NCBI GenBank assembly: GCA_036383995.1
Contig: DASVNG010000029.1
Location: 2,351 to 66,350 of the forward strand
Length of the DNA stretch: 64,000 bases
From: Pseudoxanthomonas sp.
GTDB taxonomy: Bacteria; Pseudomonadota; Gammaproteobacteria; Xanthomonadales; Xanthomonadaceae
Reading direction: 5' to 3'
Shown: positions 38,885-45,846 of the stretch, piece after piece
Layout of the letters: each line of letters starts with the position of its first letter
How positions within the stretch are numbered: the first letter of the stretch is position 1
Notes under the pieces: generated by a model
What the model was told of the DNA's origin: nothing
Databases searched by the model: none
What the model saw: only the letters and a program-made list of their open reading frames with translations
Translations under genes and position numbers: made by a program

Positions 38885-39712
38885 TTACTCGGCGGCTTCG
38901 TTCTCGGCTACGTCGGCGGCTGCCGAAGCGGCCTTCTTGGCCGGGGCACGGCCGCGCGGGGCCTTGGCCGGCTTGCCGTCGGCGCCCAGCTCCACGAACT
39001 CTTCTTCGCGCACGGAGGCCGAATTGGGAGCGGCGGCCTTGCCTTCCAGCACGGCGTCGGCAGCGGCGCGCGCGTACAGCTGCACGGCGCGGATGGCGTC
39101 GTCGTTGCCCGGGATCGGGTAGTCGACCAGGGCCGGATCGTAGTTGCTGTCGACCACCGCGATCACCGGAATGCCGAGCTTCTTGGCTTCCTTGATGGCG
39201 ATGTCTTCATGGCCGATGTCGATCACGAACAGCGCGTCGGGCAGGCGGTTCATGTCCTTGATGCCGCCCAGCGAAGCGAACAGCTTCTCGCGCTCGCGGC
39301 GCAGGCCCAGCACTTCGTGCTTGACCAGCTTGTCGAAGGTGCCGTCGGTTTCGCCGGCTTCCAGCTCCTTCAGGCGCGCCACCGACTTCTTCACCGTGGC
39401 GAAGTTGGTCAGGGTGCCGCCCAGCCAGCGCTGGGTCATGTACGGCTGGCCGCTGCGGATGGCTTCTTCCTTCATCGGCTCGCGCGCGCTGCGCTTGGTG
39501 CCCAGGAACAGCACGATGCCGCGCTTCTGGGCGATGCCCGAGATGAAGTTCATCGCGTCGGAGAACAGCGGAACGGTCTTCTCGAGGTTGATGATGTGGA
39601 TCTTGCCGCGGGCGCCGAAGATGTACGGCGCCATCTTGGGGTTCCAATAGCGGGTCTGGTGGCCGAAATGGACGCCGGCTTCCAGCATCTGGCGCATGGT
39701 GACTTGGGGCAT
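38885..39712 (-). CDS. rpsB: 30S ribosomal protein S2
   Basis: 275 aa from ATG 39712 ([27 protein letters not shown]), with GGAG upstream. Ala/Glu-rich C-terminal tail. Confidence 0.96.
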
Positions 39713-39948
39713 TGCAGTAACTCCTGATAGGGAACCGGCCGCCAGCTTTGGTAAAGGCGGTTGCCCGGCTGCGGGAGCGGCTGGGCGATGGTTCCGGGGT
39801 TGGGCCTCCCTGCGGCTTCCGTGTCCGAACCCCTTGATTCCATTGGGAATCTTGGGGCACCCCGGCACGGGCTGTGGCAGCAGGTGTGTATTTGCCGGTG
39901 TCGCCCGGCATGGGCGGTCTTGCGGGTTTGGCCCGACAAAGCCGCGGA

Positions 39949-39978
39949 ATTATAGCGGGCGGGCGCTCCAGGACGCAA
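39949..39978 (-). promoter_or_regulatory. Candidate sigma70 promoter for rpsB-tsf
   Basis: On the minus strand: TTGCGT (39978-39973), 18-nt spacer, TATAAT (39954-39949). This implies a ~230-nt 5' leader before the rpsB ATG. Confidence 0.4.
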
Positions 39979-40011
39979 ATTGCCCCCACGCCTGTGACCA
40001 GGGCTGCGGCC

Positions 40012-41997
40012 CTAACGCTGCCGGCGCGCGCCGATGTCCACCCGCGCAGCTTGCCGTACCACCACCTGGATCACGCGCTGGGCAGTTGCGTCGTCGATGT
40101 ACCAGGGCAAGGGCAGGTTGTCGGGCACCACGGTCACCCGGTGAGCGCCCGCGGCGACCCGGGGAAACTCGAAATTGCCCAGGCTGTCGGTGCGCGCGGC
40201 GTAGCGGCCGTCCAGCAGCACGGTGACGTTGGCGGCGGGCTGTTCGGAGGCGGCGCGAACACCATCGCCGTTATCGTCCAGGAACAGGCTTCCGACGACC
40301 GAACCGGTAGGGCCGCTGGAGGCGCCGCCCAGCACCGCCTGTGGCCGCCCGGCGCTGCGTTCATAGCGCAGGCTCAGGAATACGGAACGGTCGCGCGGCA
40401 GGGAGATGAAAGGAGTTTCGGTGACCAGCGGATCCAGGACGAAGGGAGAACGTTGCGATCCCGTACTCTGATAAAGCGCTGCGTTCACCGACCAGCGCGG
40501 GGTCATGCGCCAGTTCACGCCCAGGTTGAAATCGGTGCCCCGGACCGCGCCATCGCCGTCGCCATGGGTCCATCGCGCGCTGCCGTCGATCGACAATCTA
40601 TTGCTGAGATCGCGTCCGCCGTACATCGAAACGGTGGCCGCGCGGGTCGGCTCATCCTGGTCTTCGTATCGCAGTTCGCCATAGGCCAGCGAAACCGAAA
40701 GGCGTGCGCCTTGTTGCAGCGGCAGCGCCTGGTCCACGCTGACCTGCCAACTGTCCGCCTCGCCGTCGGCGCCGGCCTGGTCCACTTGCACGCGGGTTTG
40801 ACCCCAGGCGGTGCTTTTGTCCAGGAACAACTGCACGCTGTGCGCAGTGGTGGTGGAATGGCGCAGGTTGAGGCTGGCACCGTAGCCCAGAGTGCTGTTG
40901 GCCTGGTATCGCGCGAATCCGGTGGCGTAAGTGCCGTCGAAACCGGCGCCGGAGATGGACTCGATGCGATCCACGCTGGCGTTCCAGATCCAGCGCGCGT
41001 ACTGGTAGGCGATACGGTAGTAGCCGCCCTGGATGTCGTTGTTGATCGGCAGCGCGCCCCAGGAAAGATCCGGCTGCAGGCGATAGCCGCCGTAGTTGTG
41101 GGTATAGCGTCCGCGCCGCGAGCTGGCGTCGACCCATGCGCCAGCGGCGTCGCCGATGTCGCTTTCGCTGGCCAGTACGTTCAGTTGCACGCCGTCGCGT
41201 TCGCCTTGCCAGGCGGTAGCGGCATAGAGCGCTTGGGTGTCGCCTTGTTCGAACACCGCTTCGCCACGGTCGTCGGGCACGATCCGGCCATGCGTGCCCA
41301 GGAACGAAGCGGCGCCGCTCCATTGCGGAGCCCATCGCCATTGCGCACCCAATGACGCGGCTTCGCCATCGGCCAGTTCGAAGCCGACCATGCGGGTACC
41401 GTTGTACAACCCGGCGCGGCCGAAGGAGCCTTGCAGCAACAGCCCGCGCCGGTCGTCCTGCCACTCGCTGCTGACGCCGGCGAAGGCCACTGTCGGCAGA
41501 AAGAAGCGGTATTGGCTGCGCTGCATGGGCGTGGAGGGCGTGTTCAACACGCCAAGTCCATTGTTCACCCGCCAGCCGCCGTCCAGGTACAGATCGCGTT
41601 GCCACAGCGTGGCTGCGCCGTCGAGTCCGCCCTGGCGGCCCTGCAGTCCGTCGTAGCGCCTGCGGTCGCTGTCGAACAGGGTGGCGTCGAGCGAGAACGC
41701 ACCCCAGGAGTCGGTTTCCCAATAGCCGCCCGCGGCGATGCCGTGTTCGTCGTAGTGGTCGTCGCCGCGCTCGTTGCGGCTGGCCAGCAGTTCCACGTGC
41801 AAAGAACGCGGCAGGCCGCTGCTGTCCTCTTCGGCATCATGGTCAGGCGGCAACGCCTGCAGGTTCTGCGGCGCGATGATCCGGTCGCGGTACGACGGAG
41901 CCGCCTCGGTCTCCTGTGCGCCGGCGTTGCGCATCGCCAGAATGCCGGCGATGCCCAGGGCGAGCGCCAGGCGCGGATGGGCGTTTCGCGAAATCAT
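40012..41997 (-). CDS. Secreted 661-aa outer-membrane beta-barrel candidate with C-terminal carboxypeptidase-regulatory-like/Ig-like domain (cluster gene E)
   Basis: ATG 41997 overlaps the gene D stop (ATGA). Signal peptide MISRNAHPRLALALGIAGILAMRNAGA. Long run of alternating aromatic/Gly beta-strand sequence (YGGYRLQPDLSWG, GGYYRIAYQYARWIW, FNLGVNWRMTPRWSVNAALY). C-terminal ~90 aa is GSLFLDDNGDGVRAASEQPAANVTVLLDGRYAARTDSLGNFEFPRVAAGAHRVTVV. Confidence 0.6.
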   Translation of the reverse strand: MISRNAHPRLALALGIAGILAMRNAGAQETEAAPSYRDRIIAPQNLQALPPDHDAEEDSSGLPRSLHVELLASRNERGDDHYDEHGIAAGGYWETDSWGAFSLDATLFDSDRRRYDGLQGRQGGLDGAATLWQRDLYLDGGWRVNNGLGVLNTPSTPMQRSQYRFFLPTVAFAGVSSEWQDDRRGLLLQGSFGRAGLYNGTRMVGFELADGEAASLGAQWRWAPQWSGAASFLGTHGRIVPDDRGEAVFEQGDTQALYAATAWQGERDGVQLNVLASESDIGDAAGAWVDASSRRGRYTHNYGGYRLQPDLSWGALPINNDIQGGYYRIAYQYARWIWNASVDRIESISGAGFDGTYATGFARYQANSTLGYGASLNLRHSTTTAHSVQLFLDKSTAWGQTRVQVDQAGADGEADSWQVSVDQALPLQQGARLSVSLAYGELRYEDQDEPTRAATVSMYGGRDLSNRLSIDGSARWTHGDGDGAVRGTDFNLGVNWRMTPRWSVNAALYQSTGSQRSPFVLDPLVTETPFISLPRDRSVFLSLRYERSAGRPQAVLGGASSGPTGSVVGSLFLDDNGDGVRAASEQPAANVTVLLDGRYAARTDSLGNFEFPRVAAGAHRVTVVPDNLPLPWYIDDATAQRVIQVVVRQAARVDIGARRQR

Positions 41998-42797
41998 CGG
42001 GACAGCGTGGTCTCGATGTCCAGATGCTGCTTGCCCCAATCCAGGCGGCCCTTCAGCTGCACGGGATAGGCCGGCGCCGGCGGGGGGGCGTTCTCGCTGT
42101 CGCCTTGCGGAGTGAGCGGGATATCGCGGGTTTCGCCGGGCAGGATGGGAAGGGTCGAAGGCGCGAACGCATAGGTCTTGCCACTGCCGTCCTTGCCATC
42201 GACGAAACCTTGCAGACGCGCATGCGCGTTGCCGGCATTGCGTACCAACAGCACCGGCACCAGTTGGCCATCGATGGTCTGCAGTTTCTGTCCGGCGATC
42301 GAAAGCTGTGGGGCGGCATCGCCCAGGGTGAGGTAGACGATGACGCCGATGCGGCCGGAGACCGGTATGGCCACGCCACCGGCGACGTTTTCGGGATCGC
42401 TCTCGATCATGATCGCGAAACGGCATTCGCCGCTGGGCGCATCGGCCGGCACTGCGACTTCGAAGCGGTAACGTTTCTTGGCGTTAGGGCCCATGTTCAG
42501 TTCGCCCGCTTCCACCCCGACCCAAGGGCGGCAACTGCCCGGCGCCAGGGCTTCGGAGAACTGCACGGTGTTGTCCGATTGCAGTGTCCAGTCCGCCGTT
42601 TTCACGGTGTAGTGGGCGGCCTTGTCGGAAACGTTGGTGATTTCGATGACGTCGCGGTAGGTTTCGCCGGCCTTGGCGTTGTCTTCGATGCGCGGTGGCG
42701 AAACCAAAGCGGAGAACCCTTGTGCCCAGGCAAAGCCGGGGGCTAGGCAGCACAGCGCGAAGAAGATTCGGCACAGACGGTGTCGTTGCGTGGACAT
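41994..42797 (-). CDS. Secreted two-domain beta-sandwich protein, periplasmic chaperone candidate (cluster gene D)
   Basis: 267 aa; the ATG 42797 overlaps the gene C stop by 1 nt. Signal peptide MSTQRHRLCRIFFALCCLAPGFAWA. VSPPRIEDNAKAGETYRDVIEITNVSDKAAHYTVKTADW and RIGVIVYLTLG resemble PapD-like or DUF916-like Ig strands. Confidence 0.5.
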   Translation of the reverse strand: MSTQRHRLCRIFFALCCLAPGFAWAQGFSALVSPPRIEDNAKAGETYRDVIEITNVSDKAAHYTVKTADWTLQSDNTVQFSEALAPGSCRPWVGVEAGELNMGPNAKKRYRFEVAVPADAPSGECRFAIMIESDPENVAGGVAIPVSGRIGVIVYLTLGDAAPQLSIAGQKLQTIDGQLVPVLLVRNAGNAHARLQGFVDGKDGSGKTYAFAPSTLPILPGETRDIPLTPQGDSENAPPPAPAYPVQLKGRLDWGKQHLDIETTLSR

Positions 42798-43273
42798 CAG
42801 GGCGTTCCCAAGTCGATTTCGAACGCGAACGCCAGTTGCTCGTCGCGTCGGAGTTTGCTTCCGTCTGCCTGGATCTCCAGGCGCAGGGTGTCTTCGATGG
42901 CGTCGGTCTGGATAGGACCGGCATAGACCAGGGTGCGCTCGCCGCTGCGCAATTCGCCCGGCAACAGGCGGCCCTGCGTGGTCCATCGGGTGGAAACGGC
43001 GGCGGCGGGCCGCATCGGAACGGTCAGGTAGATGCGGGCCTGGCGGCCTTTCCACGGAGAGACGTCCAGACGCACGGCCACGGCGATTTCGCCGGCGACG
43101 TTCGTAGCCAATCGGCCGCGCGCTGCGGTCGGCTGCGGTTTCAGGCGCAAGGTGCCGCCCAGGATCTGGCTGGCGCTGTCGTCGACCCGGTAGGTTTGCG
43201 CAACGGCCGGAGCGATGCACGCTGCCAGAGCGGCGGCGGCAACCGCTGCGAAAAACGACGCGCGCCTGTTCAT
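42797..43273 (-). CDS. Small secreted beta-rich protein (cluster gene C)
   Basis: 158 aa; ATG 43273 overlaps the gene B stop (ATGA). Signal peptide MNRRASFFAAVAAAALAACIAPAVA. No recognisable family. Confidence 0.55.
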   Translation of the reverse strand: MNRRASFFAAVAAAALAACIAPAVAQTYRVDDSASQILGGTLRLKPQPTAARGRLATNVAGEIAVAVRLDVSPWKGRQARIYLTVPMRPAAAVSTRWTTQGRLLPGELRSGERTLVYAGPIQTDAIEDTLRLEIQADGSKLRRDEQLAFAFEIDLGTP

Positions 43274-43905
43274 GGCACCGTCAACGTGTAGGTCACGCGC
43301 CCGTTGTAGACGCCTGCCGCAACCATGTTGTTGTTGCGGTACGAAAATGAGTGGCAGCTTTCGCGCCAGGTATTGACCGGGAAGCTAGCCAGGGTCTGGG
43401 TGCCGCCGGTGAAGGCGCCGGCCGGGAAGGGTTGCGCACCGGTGTCGCCGTTGCCGCTGCTGGTCCAGGTGATCTGCGAGAACGGAATGCTGTCGCCCGC
43501 AACTGTGGTCAGGCTTGCGGGCGCGGTCACGCTCAACGTGCCCGTTCCACCCGACAGCAGCCCGCCGCGATTGAAGCCGCCCACGTAGATTTCCGCCGGA
43601 ACGTTGCAGAACGCAAAGCCGTCGTAGTTGCTGTTGGGCTGGGTTCCGTTCCCGGTCATCGGCAAGGCCGTGCCGTTCCCCAACTGCGCAGCGGGCACGG
43701 TGACCGACACCAGGTTGATGCCGCCGCCAGAGCCAGGCGTCCCATTCGAGCTGAAGGTGCCGGTATAGACGCCGTTGCCGACCCGCAGATAGACCGACGG
43801 GGTCAGCCCATTGGTGATGTTGACGGTGAAGGCTTGGGCCGTCGACGACGTTCCGGCGACGGCCAGCAGGCAGAGCGCCGCAGCGATTGGATTTCTGGCT
43901 TTCAT
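43270..43905 (-). CDS. Secreted Gly/Thr/Asn-rich subunit-like protein B (paralogue of A)
   Basis: 211 aa. Signal peptide MKARNPIAAALCLLAVAGTSSTAQA. Shares the YLRVGNG, INLVSVTVPAAQLGNGT, GDSIPFSQI and C-terminal YNGRVTYTLTVP motifs with gene A. Confidence 0.65.
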   Translation of the reverse strand: MKARNPIAAALCLLAVAGTSSTAQAFTVNITNGLTPSVYLRVGNGVYTGTFSSNGTPGSGGGINLVSVTVPAAQLGNGTALPMTGNGTQPNSNYDGFAFCNVPAEIYVGGFNRGGLLSGGTGTLSVTAPASLTTVAGDSIPFSQITWTSSGNGDTGAQPFPAGAFTGGTQTLASFPVNTWRESCHSFSYRNNNMVAAGVYNGRVTYTLTVP

Positions 43906-43920
43906 GCGGGACTCGGGCAG

Positions 43921-43955
43921 AAAAAAAGGGAGCCGGTTAGCAACCGCCGGCTCCC
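43921..43955 (-). terminator. Rho-independent terminator between cluster genes A and B
   Basis: On the minus strand: gggagccgg - 10-nt loop - ccggctccc, followed by TTTTTTT. It sits 26 nt after the gene A stop and 16 nt before the gene B ATG. Confidence 0.75.
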
Positions 43956-43980
43956 TCCGGACCTTGCGAATACGCAGCGA

Positions 43981-44604
43981 TTACGGCATCGAAGCCGTGT
44001 AGGTGACACGCCCGTTGTTGACGCCGACGCCGCCGTAGGTGCCTGGAGCCGCCACCGCGCCGTTGGCGTAGGTGTAGGTCCAGCGCGCATCGCGGTTCAC
44101 CACTTTGCCGGTGACCGGGGTCAGGGTCAGGGTGCTTGTGGCGCCATCGACCAGGGCCGGGTGCGGCAGCGCCGTGGCCGAGGTCAGGGCGGCCACCGCG
44201 GTGCCGATCTGCCCGTAGGAGATCGTGTCGCCTGCGCCATTGCCCAGCGCGCCCAGGGTGGTGGAGGTGAAGGTGATGTTGCCGTTGTTGCCTACCACCT
44301 TGGCGGTCACGGTGCCATTGCCCACATCGCCCGAGCCGGCGGTAGCGGCCACGGGGGTGCCGTCGCCCAGGTTGGCGGCAGGAACGTTGAACGAAATCAG
44401 GTTGATGGCGGCGTTGGTGGTGAAGTCCGCGCCAGTACCGACGCGCAGGAACAGGATCTTGGGAACGGTGATCTGGAAGTCCAGGCGGGCTTGGGCGGTG
44501 ATCGGGGTGCCGGTACCGGTGGTGTAGGTCGACTCAGCGCTGGCTGCCAGCGGCATCAAAGCCAGGACGGCGGCAGACAGGAGGGCCTTGCTGGAAATGC
44601 GCAT
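43981..44604 (-). CDS. Secreted Gly/Thr/Ala-rich subunit-like protein A (candidate major subunit)
   Basis: 207 aa from ATG 44604, with AAGGA ~10 nt upstream. Signal peptide MRISSKALLSAAVLALMPLAASA. Motifs FLRVGTG, INLISFNVPAANLGDGT, GDTISYGQI and C-terminal NNGRVTYTASMP. The track ORF start at 44826 is an extension. Confidence 0.65.
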   Translation of the reverse strand: MRISSKALLSAAVLALMPLAASAESTYTTGTGTPITAQARLDFQITVPKILFLRVGTGADFTTNAAINLISFNVPAANLGDGTPVAATAGSGDVGNGTVTAKVVGNNGNITFTSTTLGALGNGAGDTISYGQIGTAVAALTSATALPHPALVDGATSTLTLTPVTGKVVNRDARWTYTYANGAVAAPGTYGGVGVNNGRVTYTASMP

Positions 44605-44806
44605 GCTTTCTTGATCCTTAAAAAGGGCGATGGGAAGTAGTGGAAGGGTTGCCAGGCTCAACAATGGGCGTCCGTCTAATCGACGGATCCCAATAAATCC
44701 CTTTAGAATCAGGCTGATGCCGCGTGCGAGTGTGTGTAGGCAGAACTCTTGCCAACCCCGGCTCCCCCCGGCAGATCCTGTCGTCAGCACCCCGGCGGAG
44801 GCTGAT

Positions 44807-44873
44807 GTGAAAGAATTTTCACCCATTAGCGTGGAAACTGTGACTCAAATTTGTTGAAAATGTGACCAGTTTC
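44807..44873. promoter_or_regulatory. AT-rich palindrome/direct-repeat block upstream of cluster gene A (divergent from map)
   Basis: gtgaaa-gaat-tttcac (44807-44822). gaaactg (44834-44840) is inverted to cagtttc (44867-44873). That inverted pair encloses two (c/a)tgtgac repeats at 44838 and 44860. Confidence 0.4.
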
Positions 44874-45051
44874 TCTATTTAAATGTACTAAAGCACTTGC
44901 TCAGCTGAGAACACCGTCACATCGCTGCATGCGGCGATGAGAGTCCTCGGGCTGTCGCTGAATGGCCCGTTAGGGACCCACAACGGCCCCGCAAGCCTTG
45001 CCCATCGGGGGGTTTGTTCAGGAGTAAAGCGAAATCGGCGATAATCCAAGC

Positions 45052-45846
45052 ATGGCTATCACTCTGAAATCCCCCGAAGACCTCGAGCACATGCGTGTAG
45101 CCGGCCGTCTGGCGGCCGAAGTGCTGCAGGTCGTCGCCCCGTACGTGAAGCCCGGAGTGACCACCGCCGAGCTGGACCGGGTCTGCCACGACCATATCGT
45201 CAACGTGCAGCACGCCATCCCAGCCAATGTCGGCTACGGCGGCGGCCATGGGCGCATCCCGTTCCCGTTCACGGTCTGCACCTCGGTCAACAACGTGATC
45301 TGCCACGGCATGCCCAGCGAGGGCAAGGTGCTGAAGGACGGCGACACCGTCAACATCGATGTCACCGTGATCAAGGACGGCTGGCACGGCGACACCAGCC
45401 GCATGTACTACGTGGGCACGCCGTCGGTCATGGCCAAGCGTCTGGTGGAGACCACCCGTGAAGCCATGTTCCGCGGCATACGCACGGTCAAGCCGGGCGC
45501 CACGCTCGGCGATGTCGGCCATGCCATCCAGGAATACGCCGAGTCGCAGCGTTTCAGCGTGGTGCGCGAATATTGCGGCCACGGCATCGGCAAGGTCTAT
45601 CACGACGAACCGCAAGTGCTGCACTACGGTCGCCCCGGCGATGGCGTGGTGCTCAAGCCCGGCATGACCTTCACCATCGAGCCGATGATCAACGAAGGCA
45701 CGCGCTACACGCGCCTGTTGCCCGACGGCTGGACCGTGGTCACCAAGGACCGCAAGCTCTCCGCGCAGTGGGAACACACCGTGGCGGTGACCGAGGACGG
45801 CGTCGAGATCCTGACCCGGGTGCCCGGCGACGACAACGATCTGTGA
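45052..45846 (+). CDS. map: Methionine aminopeptidase type I
   Basis: 264 aa. VCHGMP, DTVNIDVTV, GHGIGKVYHDEPQVLHY and FTIEPM metal-ligand motifs. Confidence 0.96.
   Translation: MAITLKSPEDLEHMRVAGRLAAEVLQVVAPYVKPGVTTAELDRVCHDHIVNVQHAIPANVGYGGGHGRIPFPFTVCTSVNNVICHGMPSEGKVLKDGDTVNIDVTVIKDGWHGDTSRMYYVGTPSVMAKRLVETTREAMFRGIRTVKPGATLGDVGHAIQEYAESQRFSVVREYCGHGIGKVYHDEPQVLHYGRPGDGVVLKPGMTFTIEPMINEGTRYTRLLPDGWTVVTKDRKLSAQWEHTVAVTEDGVEILTRVPGDDNDL

Follow-up and report, generated by a model that had tools for sequence, protein, structure and literature searches.

Gene E is the last of five genes (A-B-C-D-E) on the minus strand of a 64,000-nucleotide stretch of Pseudoxanthomonas sp. DNA (contig DASVNG010000029.1; the whole stretch is hereafter called the window), and all five products carry signal peptides (Table 1). 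We propose that E is probably the outer-membrane translocation and assembly pore, the equivalent of an usher, of a non-canonical chaperone-usher-like fibre system encoded by this cassette. The computed support comprises the predicted fold of E, a β-barrel followed by a β-sandwich, the ushers among its top structural matches, the chaperone fold of the neighbouring protein D, the co-occurrence of D and E, and the conservation of motifs in E. The initial annotation of the locus, made from the sequence alone, had called E not usher-like. This held for the domain architecture and the family membership of E, but not for its fold, context and probable function, where it is undercut by FimD and PapC as the best fold matches, by an alignment of the E C-terminal domain to the first C-terminal domain of ushers (CTD1), by the PapD-like fold of D and by the strict co-occurrence of D with E. 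The most fitting description of E is that of an usher analogue, or possibly of an usher homologue that has diverged very far.

The structure of E was predicted by AlphaFold2 on a 38-sequence alignment (mean predicted local distance difference test score, pLDDT, 78; predicted template modelling score, pTM, 0.72), and the strands were assigned by DSSP. A barrel was predicted, as the initial annotation had expected of this long region rich in Y, W and G. However, the barrel-type region covers about 486 residues (64-549) and not the ~550 first estimated. The model has 26 strands of 10-18 residues each, mostly linked by turns of 2-6 residues. Longer connections are found at residues 110-124, 152-171 (including a short helix), 307-322 and 511-536. 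The longest inter-strand segment has 24 residues, and therefore the modelled barrel contains no plug-sized insertion. In ushers, the plug is an immunoglobulin-like (Ig-like) domain inserted in the β6-β7 loop (PMC4356140); strands 6 (171-181) and 7 (186-198) of the E model are linked by 4 residues. The polypeptide ends in GARRQR, from which it had been reasoned that the last barrel strand must be internal. The model agrees: the strand at residues 536-549 (DRSVFLSLRYERSA) lies inside the chain and contains SVFLSLRY, a candidate internal β-signal.

Residue conservation was determined in an alignment of 109 E-family representatives, which are 25-49% identical to E. In the last strand, Y545 is kept in 93/109 and position 543 is L, V or I in 106/109. 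The most conserved non-strand segments of the barrel are the loops 152-171 (strands 5-6; R164 and P168) and 307-322 (strands 13-14; conserved W313, G324 and Y326). In PapC, the lumen hairpin and the capping helix that control gating occupy the strand 5-6 and 13-14 positions (PMC4356140). The parallel between these gating elements and the conserved loops of E is suggestive only.

We compared the E model with the PDB by Foldseek. The best 16 matches were FimD and PapC, with E-values from 2e-14 to 4e-9. They were followed by MtrB, which ranks 17th, and OprD (both 1.6e-8), and then by TonB-dependent transporters. By E-value, the best FimD match is approximately six orders of magnitude ahead of MtrB, OprD and the TonB-dependent transporters. 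The initial annotation had also pointed to FapF, CsgG, PgaA and TamA/BamA for comparison, and none of these is among the 50 best matches. A PDB sequence search with E alone gave no match.

The usher is a five-domain machine consisting of an N-terminal domain (NTD), the barrel, the plug, CTD1 and a second C-terminal domain (CTD2); subunits are passed from the NTD to the C-terminal domains, and the plug gates the pore (PMC4356140). E departs from this architecture, as the initial annotation had recognised. A Pfam scan of E found neither PapC_N nor PapC_C, and no POTRA or Omp85 domain. Whereas the folded usher N-terminal domain (PapC_N) has about 125 residues, E has 36 residues (28-63) before the first strand, and residues 22-56 are modelled at low confidence (pLDDT <50). 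At the other end, E stops after a single sandwich and has no CTD2.

The comparison between E and ushers was also made at the level of profiles. The 109-member E-family alignment was aligned by hhalign with 11 canonical ushers from same-genus genomes. A single significant local match resulted, between residues 563-661 of E and usher residues 644-750 (Prob 86.8%, E-value 4e-6). The C-terminal domain of E alone still matched the ushers (Prob 49.7%, E-value 1.7e-4), and the control with reversed usher sequences had a Prob of 1%. The Pfam map of the compared usher places PapC_N at 54-189, Usher at 205-744 and PapC_C at 753-816. The matched region is CTD1, because it lies at the end of PF00577, directly before PapC_C. 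Proteins A, B, C and D reached a Prob of 1% or less against the canonical ushers and serve as negative controls too.

The genome that holds the window was also searched for a canonical usher. PF00577 was searched against all six frames of the complete genome and found 0 matches; the same search was positive in 12 of 41 relatives and in the E. coli control. Therefore, the A-E cassette is the sole candidate chaperone-usher-type system in this genome, and there is no canonical usher that D could serve instead.

The C-terminal module of E runs LFLDDNGDG...TDSLGNFEFPRVAAGAHRVTVV. It was modelled as a sandwich over residues 564-659 and is the most conserved part of the E family. The initial likening of this module to CarboxypepD_reg and SdrD_B domains is supported by Pfam matches that in E itself fall below the gathering score, by recurrence in homologues and by PDB profile matches. 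CarboxypepD_reg (PF13620) matched full-length E with an E-value of 4.9e-5 (24 bits) and the isolated domain with 9.7e-7 (29.5 bits), against a gathering cut-off of 32.3. The SdrD_B (PF17210) match had E-values of 1e-3 for the full length and 6.5e-5 for the isolated domain, with 19.7-23.5 bits against a cut-off of 29.7. The former recurs in 37 of 38 homologues and the latter in 36, and the distant relatives P0260 and P0261 pass the SdrD_B cut-off (34.2 and 33.8 bits). In a PDB profile search, the E family matched the B domains of UafA and SdrD.

The DxNxDG pattern, already seen in the first reading, is indeed present, and its positions are conserved in 95-109 of the 109 representatives. Together with the following glutamate it has the spacing of an EF-hand loop: D574 is kept in 109, N576 in 102, N, D or S at position 578 in 109, G579 in 95 and E585 in 107. 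The loop may bind Ca2+. At the end of the sandwich, residues 628-632 form a family-specific [LVI]PLPW motif (P629 in 107/109, L630 and P631 each in 109/109, W632 in 106/109). The likeness to the SdrD/UafA B domains and to CarboxypepD_reg, which are transthyretin-like sandwiches, is at the sequence level and includes the DxNxDG...E loop and a TDxxGxFxF motif. Those domains occur in Gram-positive adhesins as stalk repeats or in TonB-dependent receptors as N-terminal modules; in contrast, the sandwich of E is present in a single copy after an outer-membrane barrel and has the [LVI]PLPW tail. The initial annotation had left the choice between a periplasmic sandwich and a plug. Given the even strand count and the periplasmic N-terminus, the sandwich should be periplasmic in the model, and no plug insertion is seen between the barrel strands.

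The gene upstream of E encodes D. The AlphaFold2 model of D (pLDDT 87.8) has two sandwich domains, and its Foldseek matches were WxLIP, CfaA, CsuC, YadV, FimC, Caf1M, PapD, DraB, FaeE and EcpB, all of which are donor-strand chaperones. The top match was WxLIP (9i25_C, E-value 4e-9). D belongs to no Pfam family and has weak Ig-like matches; 17 of 30 D homologues have weak matches to the Pfam family WxLIP_PGBD. A PDB profile search with D gave no meaningful match, and UniRef labels some D homologues as 'molecular chaperone'. The start codon of E and the stop codon of D share an ATGA overlap, by which the two genes appear to be translationally coupled. We predict that D is the cognate PapD-like periplasmic chaperone of E, encoded in the same operon.

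The occurrence of the D family was examined in 26 genomes. It was present in exactly 10 of them, which are those with a barrel-plus-sandwich relative of E, and it always lay within about 3 kb of that relative. It was found in 0/4 genomes with barrel-only relatives and in 0/12 negatives. A D-like chaperone gene was also seen in a genome of another class of the phylum (G532, L119:9232-10140; E-value 4e-19), flanked by small open reading frames (ORFs) without a Pfam match. There is no E-like barrel or canonical usher within about 9 kb of this gene, which may belong to a system with a different partner.

Several findings weigh against E as an usher equivalent. PF00577, the Usher family, had no match in the Pfam scan of E even at E-value ≤1. 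The barrel of E cannot be aligned to ushers above the control by hhalign (Prob 11.7%, reversed control 9.9%). The NTD, the plug and CTD2, which are three of the five defining usher domains, are missing. The model has 26 strands (a predicted count), whereas ushers have 24. The Foldseek TM-scores were uniformly low and do not separate the ushers (0.38-0.40) from MtrB (0.41). Finally, outside the cassette the barrel has its nearest sequence relatives in stand-alone barrels of 520-560 residues, which lie in unrelated contexts.

These findings bear on whether E and ushers share an ancestor. The ranking of the fold matches, the CTD1 alignment and the positions of the conserved loops favour homology; the non-alignable barrel, the strand count and the stand-alone relatives argue for caution. 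We regard it as a real possibility, without favouring it, that E is a true and very divergent member of the usher superfamily, which either lost the NTD, the plug and CTD2 from a five-domain usher or represents a pre-plug ancestral form. This is a sub-case of the explanation proposed above, with an identical function and a stronger evolutionary claim. Ushers as the top fold matches, the hhalign match of the C-terminal domain to CTD1, the conserved loops at strands 5-6 and 13-14 as in PapC, and a PapD-like partner all fit it. However, neither the barrel alignment nor the 26 model strands do, and HMMER scores the C-terminal domain higher on CarboxypepD_reg and SdrD_B than on any usher model. In consequence of this HMMER preference, the likeness to CTD1 could reflect a shared sandwich fold only.

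In a second alternative, E would be a 26-strand sheath like MtrB, or a barrel of general use in secretion or anchoring, that holds or exports a surface-exposed complex of one or more of A, B and C; no donor-strand polymerisation would take place, and D would act as a holdase instead of a pilus chaperone. MtrB, the sheath of the Mtr complex (6r2q_B), has 26 strands like the E model, a similar barrel size and short loops, and it gave the highest TM-score of all; short turns are found on both faces of the E barrel, which has no sequence homology to ushers and has stand-alone relatives. We nevertheless consider this alternative unlikely. MtrB ranks 17th by Foldseek E-value (1.6e-8 vs 2e-14 for FimD), it lacks a C-terminal sandwich, and no match to the Pfam family MtrB_PioB was found in E. 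Nor does the cassette supply a cytochrome or lipoprotein partner, as A-D have no cytochrome domains and C is not a lipoprotein. The fold of D is specifically that of a donor-strand chaperone, and two paralogous small subunits, A and B, with an apparent terminator after A are the layout of a pilin operon. A third alternative, that E is a solute porin or transporter, or a polysaccharide or amyloid exporter of the FapF, CsgG or PgaA type, functionally unrelated to A-D, could appeal to the OprD/Occ porins and TonB-dependent transporters among the fold matches (E-values of about 1e-8 to 1e-7) and to the CarboxypepD_reg domains that are common in TonB-dependent receptors, but it is highly improbable in view of the strict co-occurrence and apparent translational coupling with D, the lack of a plug or TonB-box domain and of a TonB_dep_Rec match in the Pfam scan, the absence of FapF, CsgG, PgaA and BamA/TamA from the 50 best fold matches, and a cassette without polysaccharide or amyloid genes.

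With E as the usher equivalent, the system could work as follows. Sec would export A, B and possibly C to the periplasm, where the PapD-like chaperone D would capture them and hand them to E. E would be a large barrel, with 26 strands in the model, that has neither an internal plug nor a folded N-terminal domain. Its single Ca2+-loop sandwich, which would correspond in position and perhaps in evolution to usher CTD1, would hang in the periplasm on a 14-residue linker. With its PLPW tail, the sandwich would dock chaperone-subunit complexes and at rest would gate the pore; it is proposed as the gate because E has no plug. The N-terminal peptide YxD[RQK]h[ILM] would recruit these complexes in place of the absent N-terminal domain, with the sandwich as the second docking site. 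Fibre formation by donor-strand exchange, gating by the C-terminal domain, docking by the N-terminal peptide and Ca2+ binding are steps that we infer only. We further suggest, tentatively and with more doubt than confidence, that the cassette represents a separate and unrecognised lineage of donor-strand fibre assembly in Proteobacteria, with a plug-less pore of ~26 strands, a Ca2+-sandwich gate and recruitment via an N-terminal peptide, in other words a two-module 'minimal usher'.

We compared the cassette with known assembly systems. FimD and PapC resemble E, as it is modelled, in having a large outer-membrane β-barrel followed by a periplasmic β-sandwich at the CTD1 position, and an internal β-signal. 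They are likewise encoded beside, and translationally coupled with, a two-domain chaperone of the PapD fold, and accompanied by genes for small secreted paralogous subunits. E differs from them in that it has no PF00577 domain, a 36-residue peptide for the NTD, no plug between strands 6 and 7, no CTD2, 26 model strands instead of 24, 661 residues instead of 800-900, and a C-terminal domain that contains an EF-hand-like Ca2+ loop and scores as CarboxypepD_reg/SdrD_B. The archaic (sigma, Csu/CupE) and alternative (alpha, CFA/I) systems resemble the cassette in that their chaperones CfaA and CsuC are the best Gram-negative fold matches of D. They also share with it environmental hosts and a compact operon, in which the genes for a major subunit and additional subunits are joined by those for a chaperone and an outer-membrane pore. 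However, their ushers are canonical five-domain proteins, and their pilins are of the SCPU type or class 5 and are recognised by Pfam, whereas, the C-terminal sandwich of E aside, none of the proteins A-E falls into a family of Pfam or NCBIfam. The donor-strand pilus of Bacillota (WxL/WxLIP, Elr; bioRxiv 10.64898/2026.10.17.759780) resembles the cassette in that WxLIP is the best fold match of D. In that system, the chaperone primes the subunits by donor-strand complementation (bioRxiv 10.64898/2026.10.17.759780). It differs in being Gram-positive, with a membrane-anchored chaperone, sortase anchoring and no outer-membrane pore, and Pfam scans of the A and B families revealed no WxL domain.

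A word-index search yielded 232 matches to E, and an exhaustive profile search found about 440 cluster representatives at an E-value <1e-30. Among the best 150 of these representatives, most are full-length proteins of 620-800 residues with the architecture of E, and the remainder consists of fragments and of giant proteins that carry Cna-B-type repeats. The motifs of E are kept down to 25% identity. The named hosts in the Lysobacteraceae are Pseudoxanthomonas, Luteimonas, Lysobacter, Arenimonas, Thermomonas, Vulcaniibacterium and Marilutibacter; a distant clade of E is found in Thiolinea and in Comamonadaceae (Variovorax, Polaromonas, Hydrogenophaga and Xenophilus). The only labels that family members bear are 'carboxypeptidase-like regulatory', 'SdrD B-like domain-containing' and hypothetical protein. 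At the scale of the phylum the system is rare (4/401 genomes). The stand-alone barrels of 520-560 residues (L020:7687-9366 and L022:3417-4985) are related to the E barrel over its first half (E-value 1e-13). They have no C-terminal sandwich and no A-D or chaperone neighbours; one adjoins MotA/MotB-like genes, and the other adjoins DUF4197 and dxs.

The gene order A-B-C-D-E is kept in 80 loci of the Lysobacteraceae. The cassette occupies at least four chromosomal contexts. In 14 loci it is flanked by map and rpsB, in 3 it is placed between tsf and pyrH, and the remaining loci have it elsewhere. This suggests that the cassette has been repeatedly relocated as a unit. In the window (38885-45846) and in loci L023-L102, the insertion points vary in the conserved glnD-map / rpsB-tsf-pyrH neighbourhood, and in the Lysobacteraceae the cassette is mostly elsewhere. 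No mobility genes were seen beside the cassette in the window. In distant genomes, the five genes occur together but their order and orientation are shuffled: E is convergent in L017 and L018, first in L019 and L021 and divergent in L120. In L120:7853-13844 (genome G504), E is divergent from D, B and two A-like genes, and a homologue of C could not be detected. In this variant, C may be dispensable or have a substitute.

A and B are paralogues (Prob 99.5% by hhalign). In each, the N-terminal strands are conserved and alternating-hydrophobic, and the C-terminal strand is conserved as well; in B, the residues C100 and C184 are invariant. Between genes A and B, directly 3' of the A stop codon, lies a strong hairpin with a GC-rich stem, which resembles an intrinsic terminator or attenuator and could produce a high ratio of A to B-E products; this arrangement would resemble the layout after major-pilin genes. 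Pfam scans of the A, B and C families, including the WxL, fimbrial and SCPU domains, gave no match, and the PDB profile searches with A, B and C gave no meaningful match. NCBIfam and PHROGs scans of A-E were also without a match. C was considered as a lipoprotein and rejected, as Cys19 is not conserved in the family alignment. We also asked whether C could provide the missing NTD or plug in trans; hhalign of C against the usher NTD, plug and CTD2 gave nothing, and this idea therefore has no support. The hhalign comparison of C with A, B, D and the C-terminal domain of E was negative as well, and no relative of C with a known function was detected.

The limits of gene E were established on the minus strand, from the ATG at 41997 to the stop codon at 40012-40014. 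The resulting 661 residues confirm the length first reported, which is below that of canonical ushers. The plus-strand reading of 40012-41997 was rejected, as it contains no ORF and its translation is not a protein. The longest ORF (804 codons for amino acids; 40012-42426, minus strand) was also rejected as a high-GC artefact: it overlaps gene D, and homologues align from the ATG of the 661-residue protein. This ORF spans the entire D/E junction, and over-long ORFs are frequent in such 66% GC DNA. Among 120 listed homologues, the lengths range from 570 to 705 residues (nearly all 640-705), and the alignment begins at the start of the 661-residue protein. The N-terminal extensions of longer database homologues (760-934 residues) contained no domain in a Pfam scan, and some of these proteins may therefore be over-called in the same way.

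The signal peptide and the acidic segment that the initial annotation placed at the N-terminus of E were both found: residues 1-27 are followed by the acidic stretches PPDHDAEEDSSG (residues 50-61) and NERGDDHYDEHG (residues 75-86). Ahead of the acidic residues lies the conserved peptide Y36-x-D38-[RQK]-[LVI]-[ILM], in which Y36 is kept in 99/109 representatives and D38 in 103/109. The YxD motif is also present in the distant cassettes L016-L021. In one of these (L018:3720-6524, minus strand), the E relative has an N-terminal extension of ~300 residues without a Pfam match, in which two similar segments, YRGYWSLWPGETLFKIA and LLPLAPGEDLEEVAWLL, precede a YVDQLI motif.

Table 1. Features of the A-E cassette and of protein E, with coordinates in the window.
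Feature	Coordinates	Strand	Basis
Gene A, 207-residue secreted candidate major subunit	43981..44604	minus	ORF; N-terminal strand ARLDFxVxIP, C-terminal GRVTYTASMP
Intrinsic terminator-like hairpin between A and B, 12-bp stem and U7	43918..43958	minus	RNA fold; a simple scan found a weaker version
Gene B, 211-residue secreted candidate subunit, paralogue of A	43270..43905	minus	hhalign; two conserved Cys
Gene C, 158-residue secreted protein	42797..43273	minus	Family alignment; no Pfam or PDB match
Gene D, 267-residue periplasmic protein, two Ig-like domains, predicted PapD-like chaperone fold	41994..42797	minus	AlphaFold2; Foldseek; co-occurrence with E
Gene E, 661-residue predicted outer-membrane protein	40012..41997	minus	ORF and translation; homologues of like length; ATGA overlap with D stop
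E, signal peptide, residues 1-27, cleavage AGA/QE	41917..41997	minus	Read from sequence; model helix at residues 8-20; A27 nearly invariant
E, N-terminal segment, residues 28-63, acidic stretch after conserved peptide	41809..41916	minus	Low-confidence model; motif conservation
E, β-barrel region, residues 64-549, 26 DSSP strands, no plug insertion	40351..41808	minus	AlphaFold2; Foldseek
E, last barrel strand, residues 536-549, candidate internal β-signal ending at Y545	40351..40392	minus	Model strand; conservation
E, linker from barrel to C-terminal domain, residues 550-563	40309..40350	minus	No regular secondary structure; pLDDT 51-67
E, C-terminal β-sandwich, residues 564-661, CarboxypepD_reg/SdrD_B type, at usher CTD1 position	40015..40308	minus	Pfam; PDB profile; hhalign; conservation
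E, EF-hand-like loop D574-x-N576-x-D578-G579-x5-E585, putative Ca2+ site	40243..40278	minus	Conservation; same loop in SdrD_B matches

The cassette family is absent from Pfam and NCBIfam, and no description of it was found in the literature searched. The searches made returned no plug-less or usher-like system and no Lysobacter fimbriae of such a type; the sole 'usher-like' match (PMC13734109) was rejected as an ordinary archaic chaperone-usher system.

If our proposal is true, a barrel with one C-terminal sandwich, locked to a PapD-fold chaperone and paralogous subunits, would be a minimal solution to the usher problem, and such a two-module 'minimal usher' would show which usher domains are dispensable. 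It would become testable which usher domains the catalysis of fibre assembly requires, by what means a large barrel that has no plug is kept sealed and whether Ca2+ controls gating. Hundreds of these cassettes in Lysobacteraceae, Comamonadaceae and Thiolinea, which are bacteria of soil, water and biocontrol, carry domain-only or hypothetical labels. With such labels, annotation has probably overlooked an entire class of surface fibres; beyond the sandwich domain, neither Pfam nor NCBIfam has a family for any of the five proteins.

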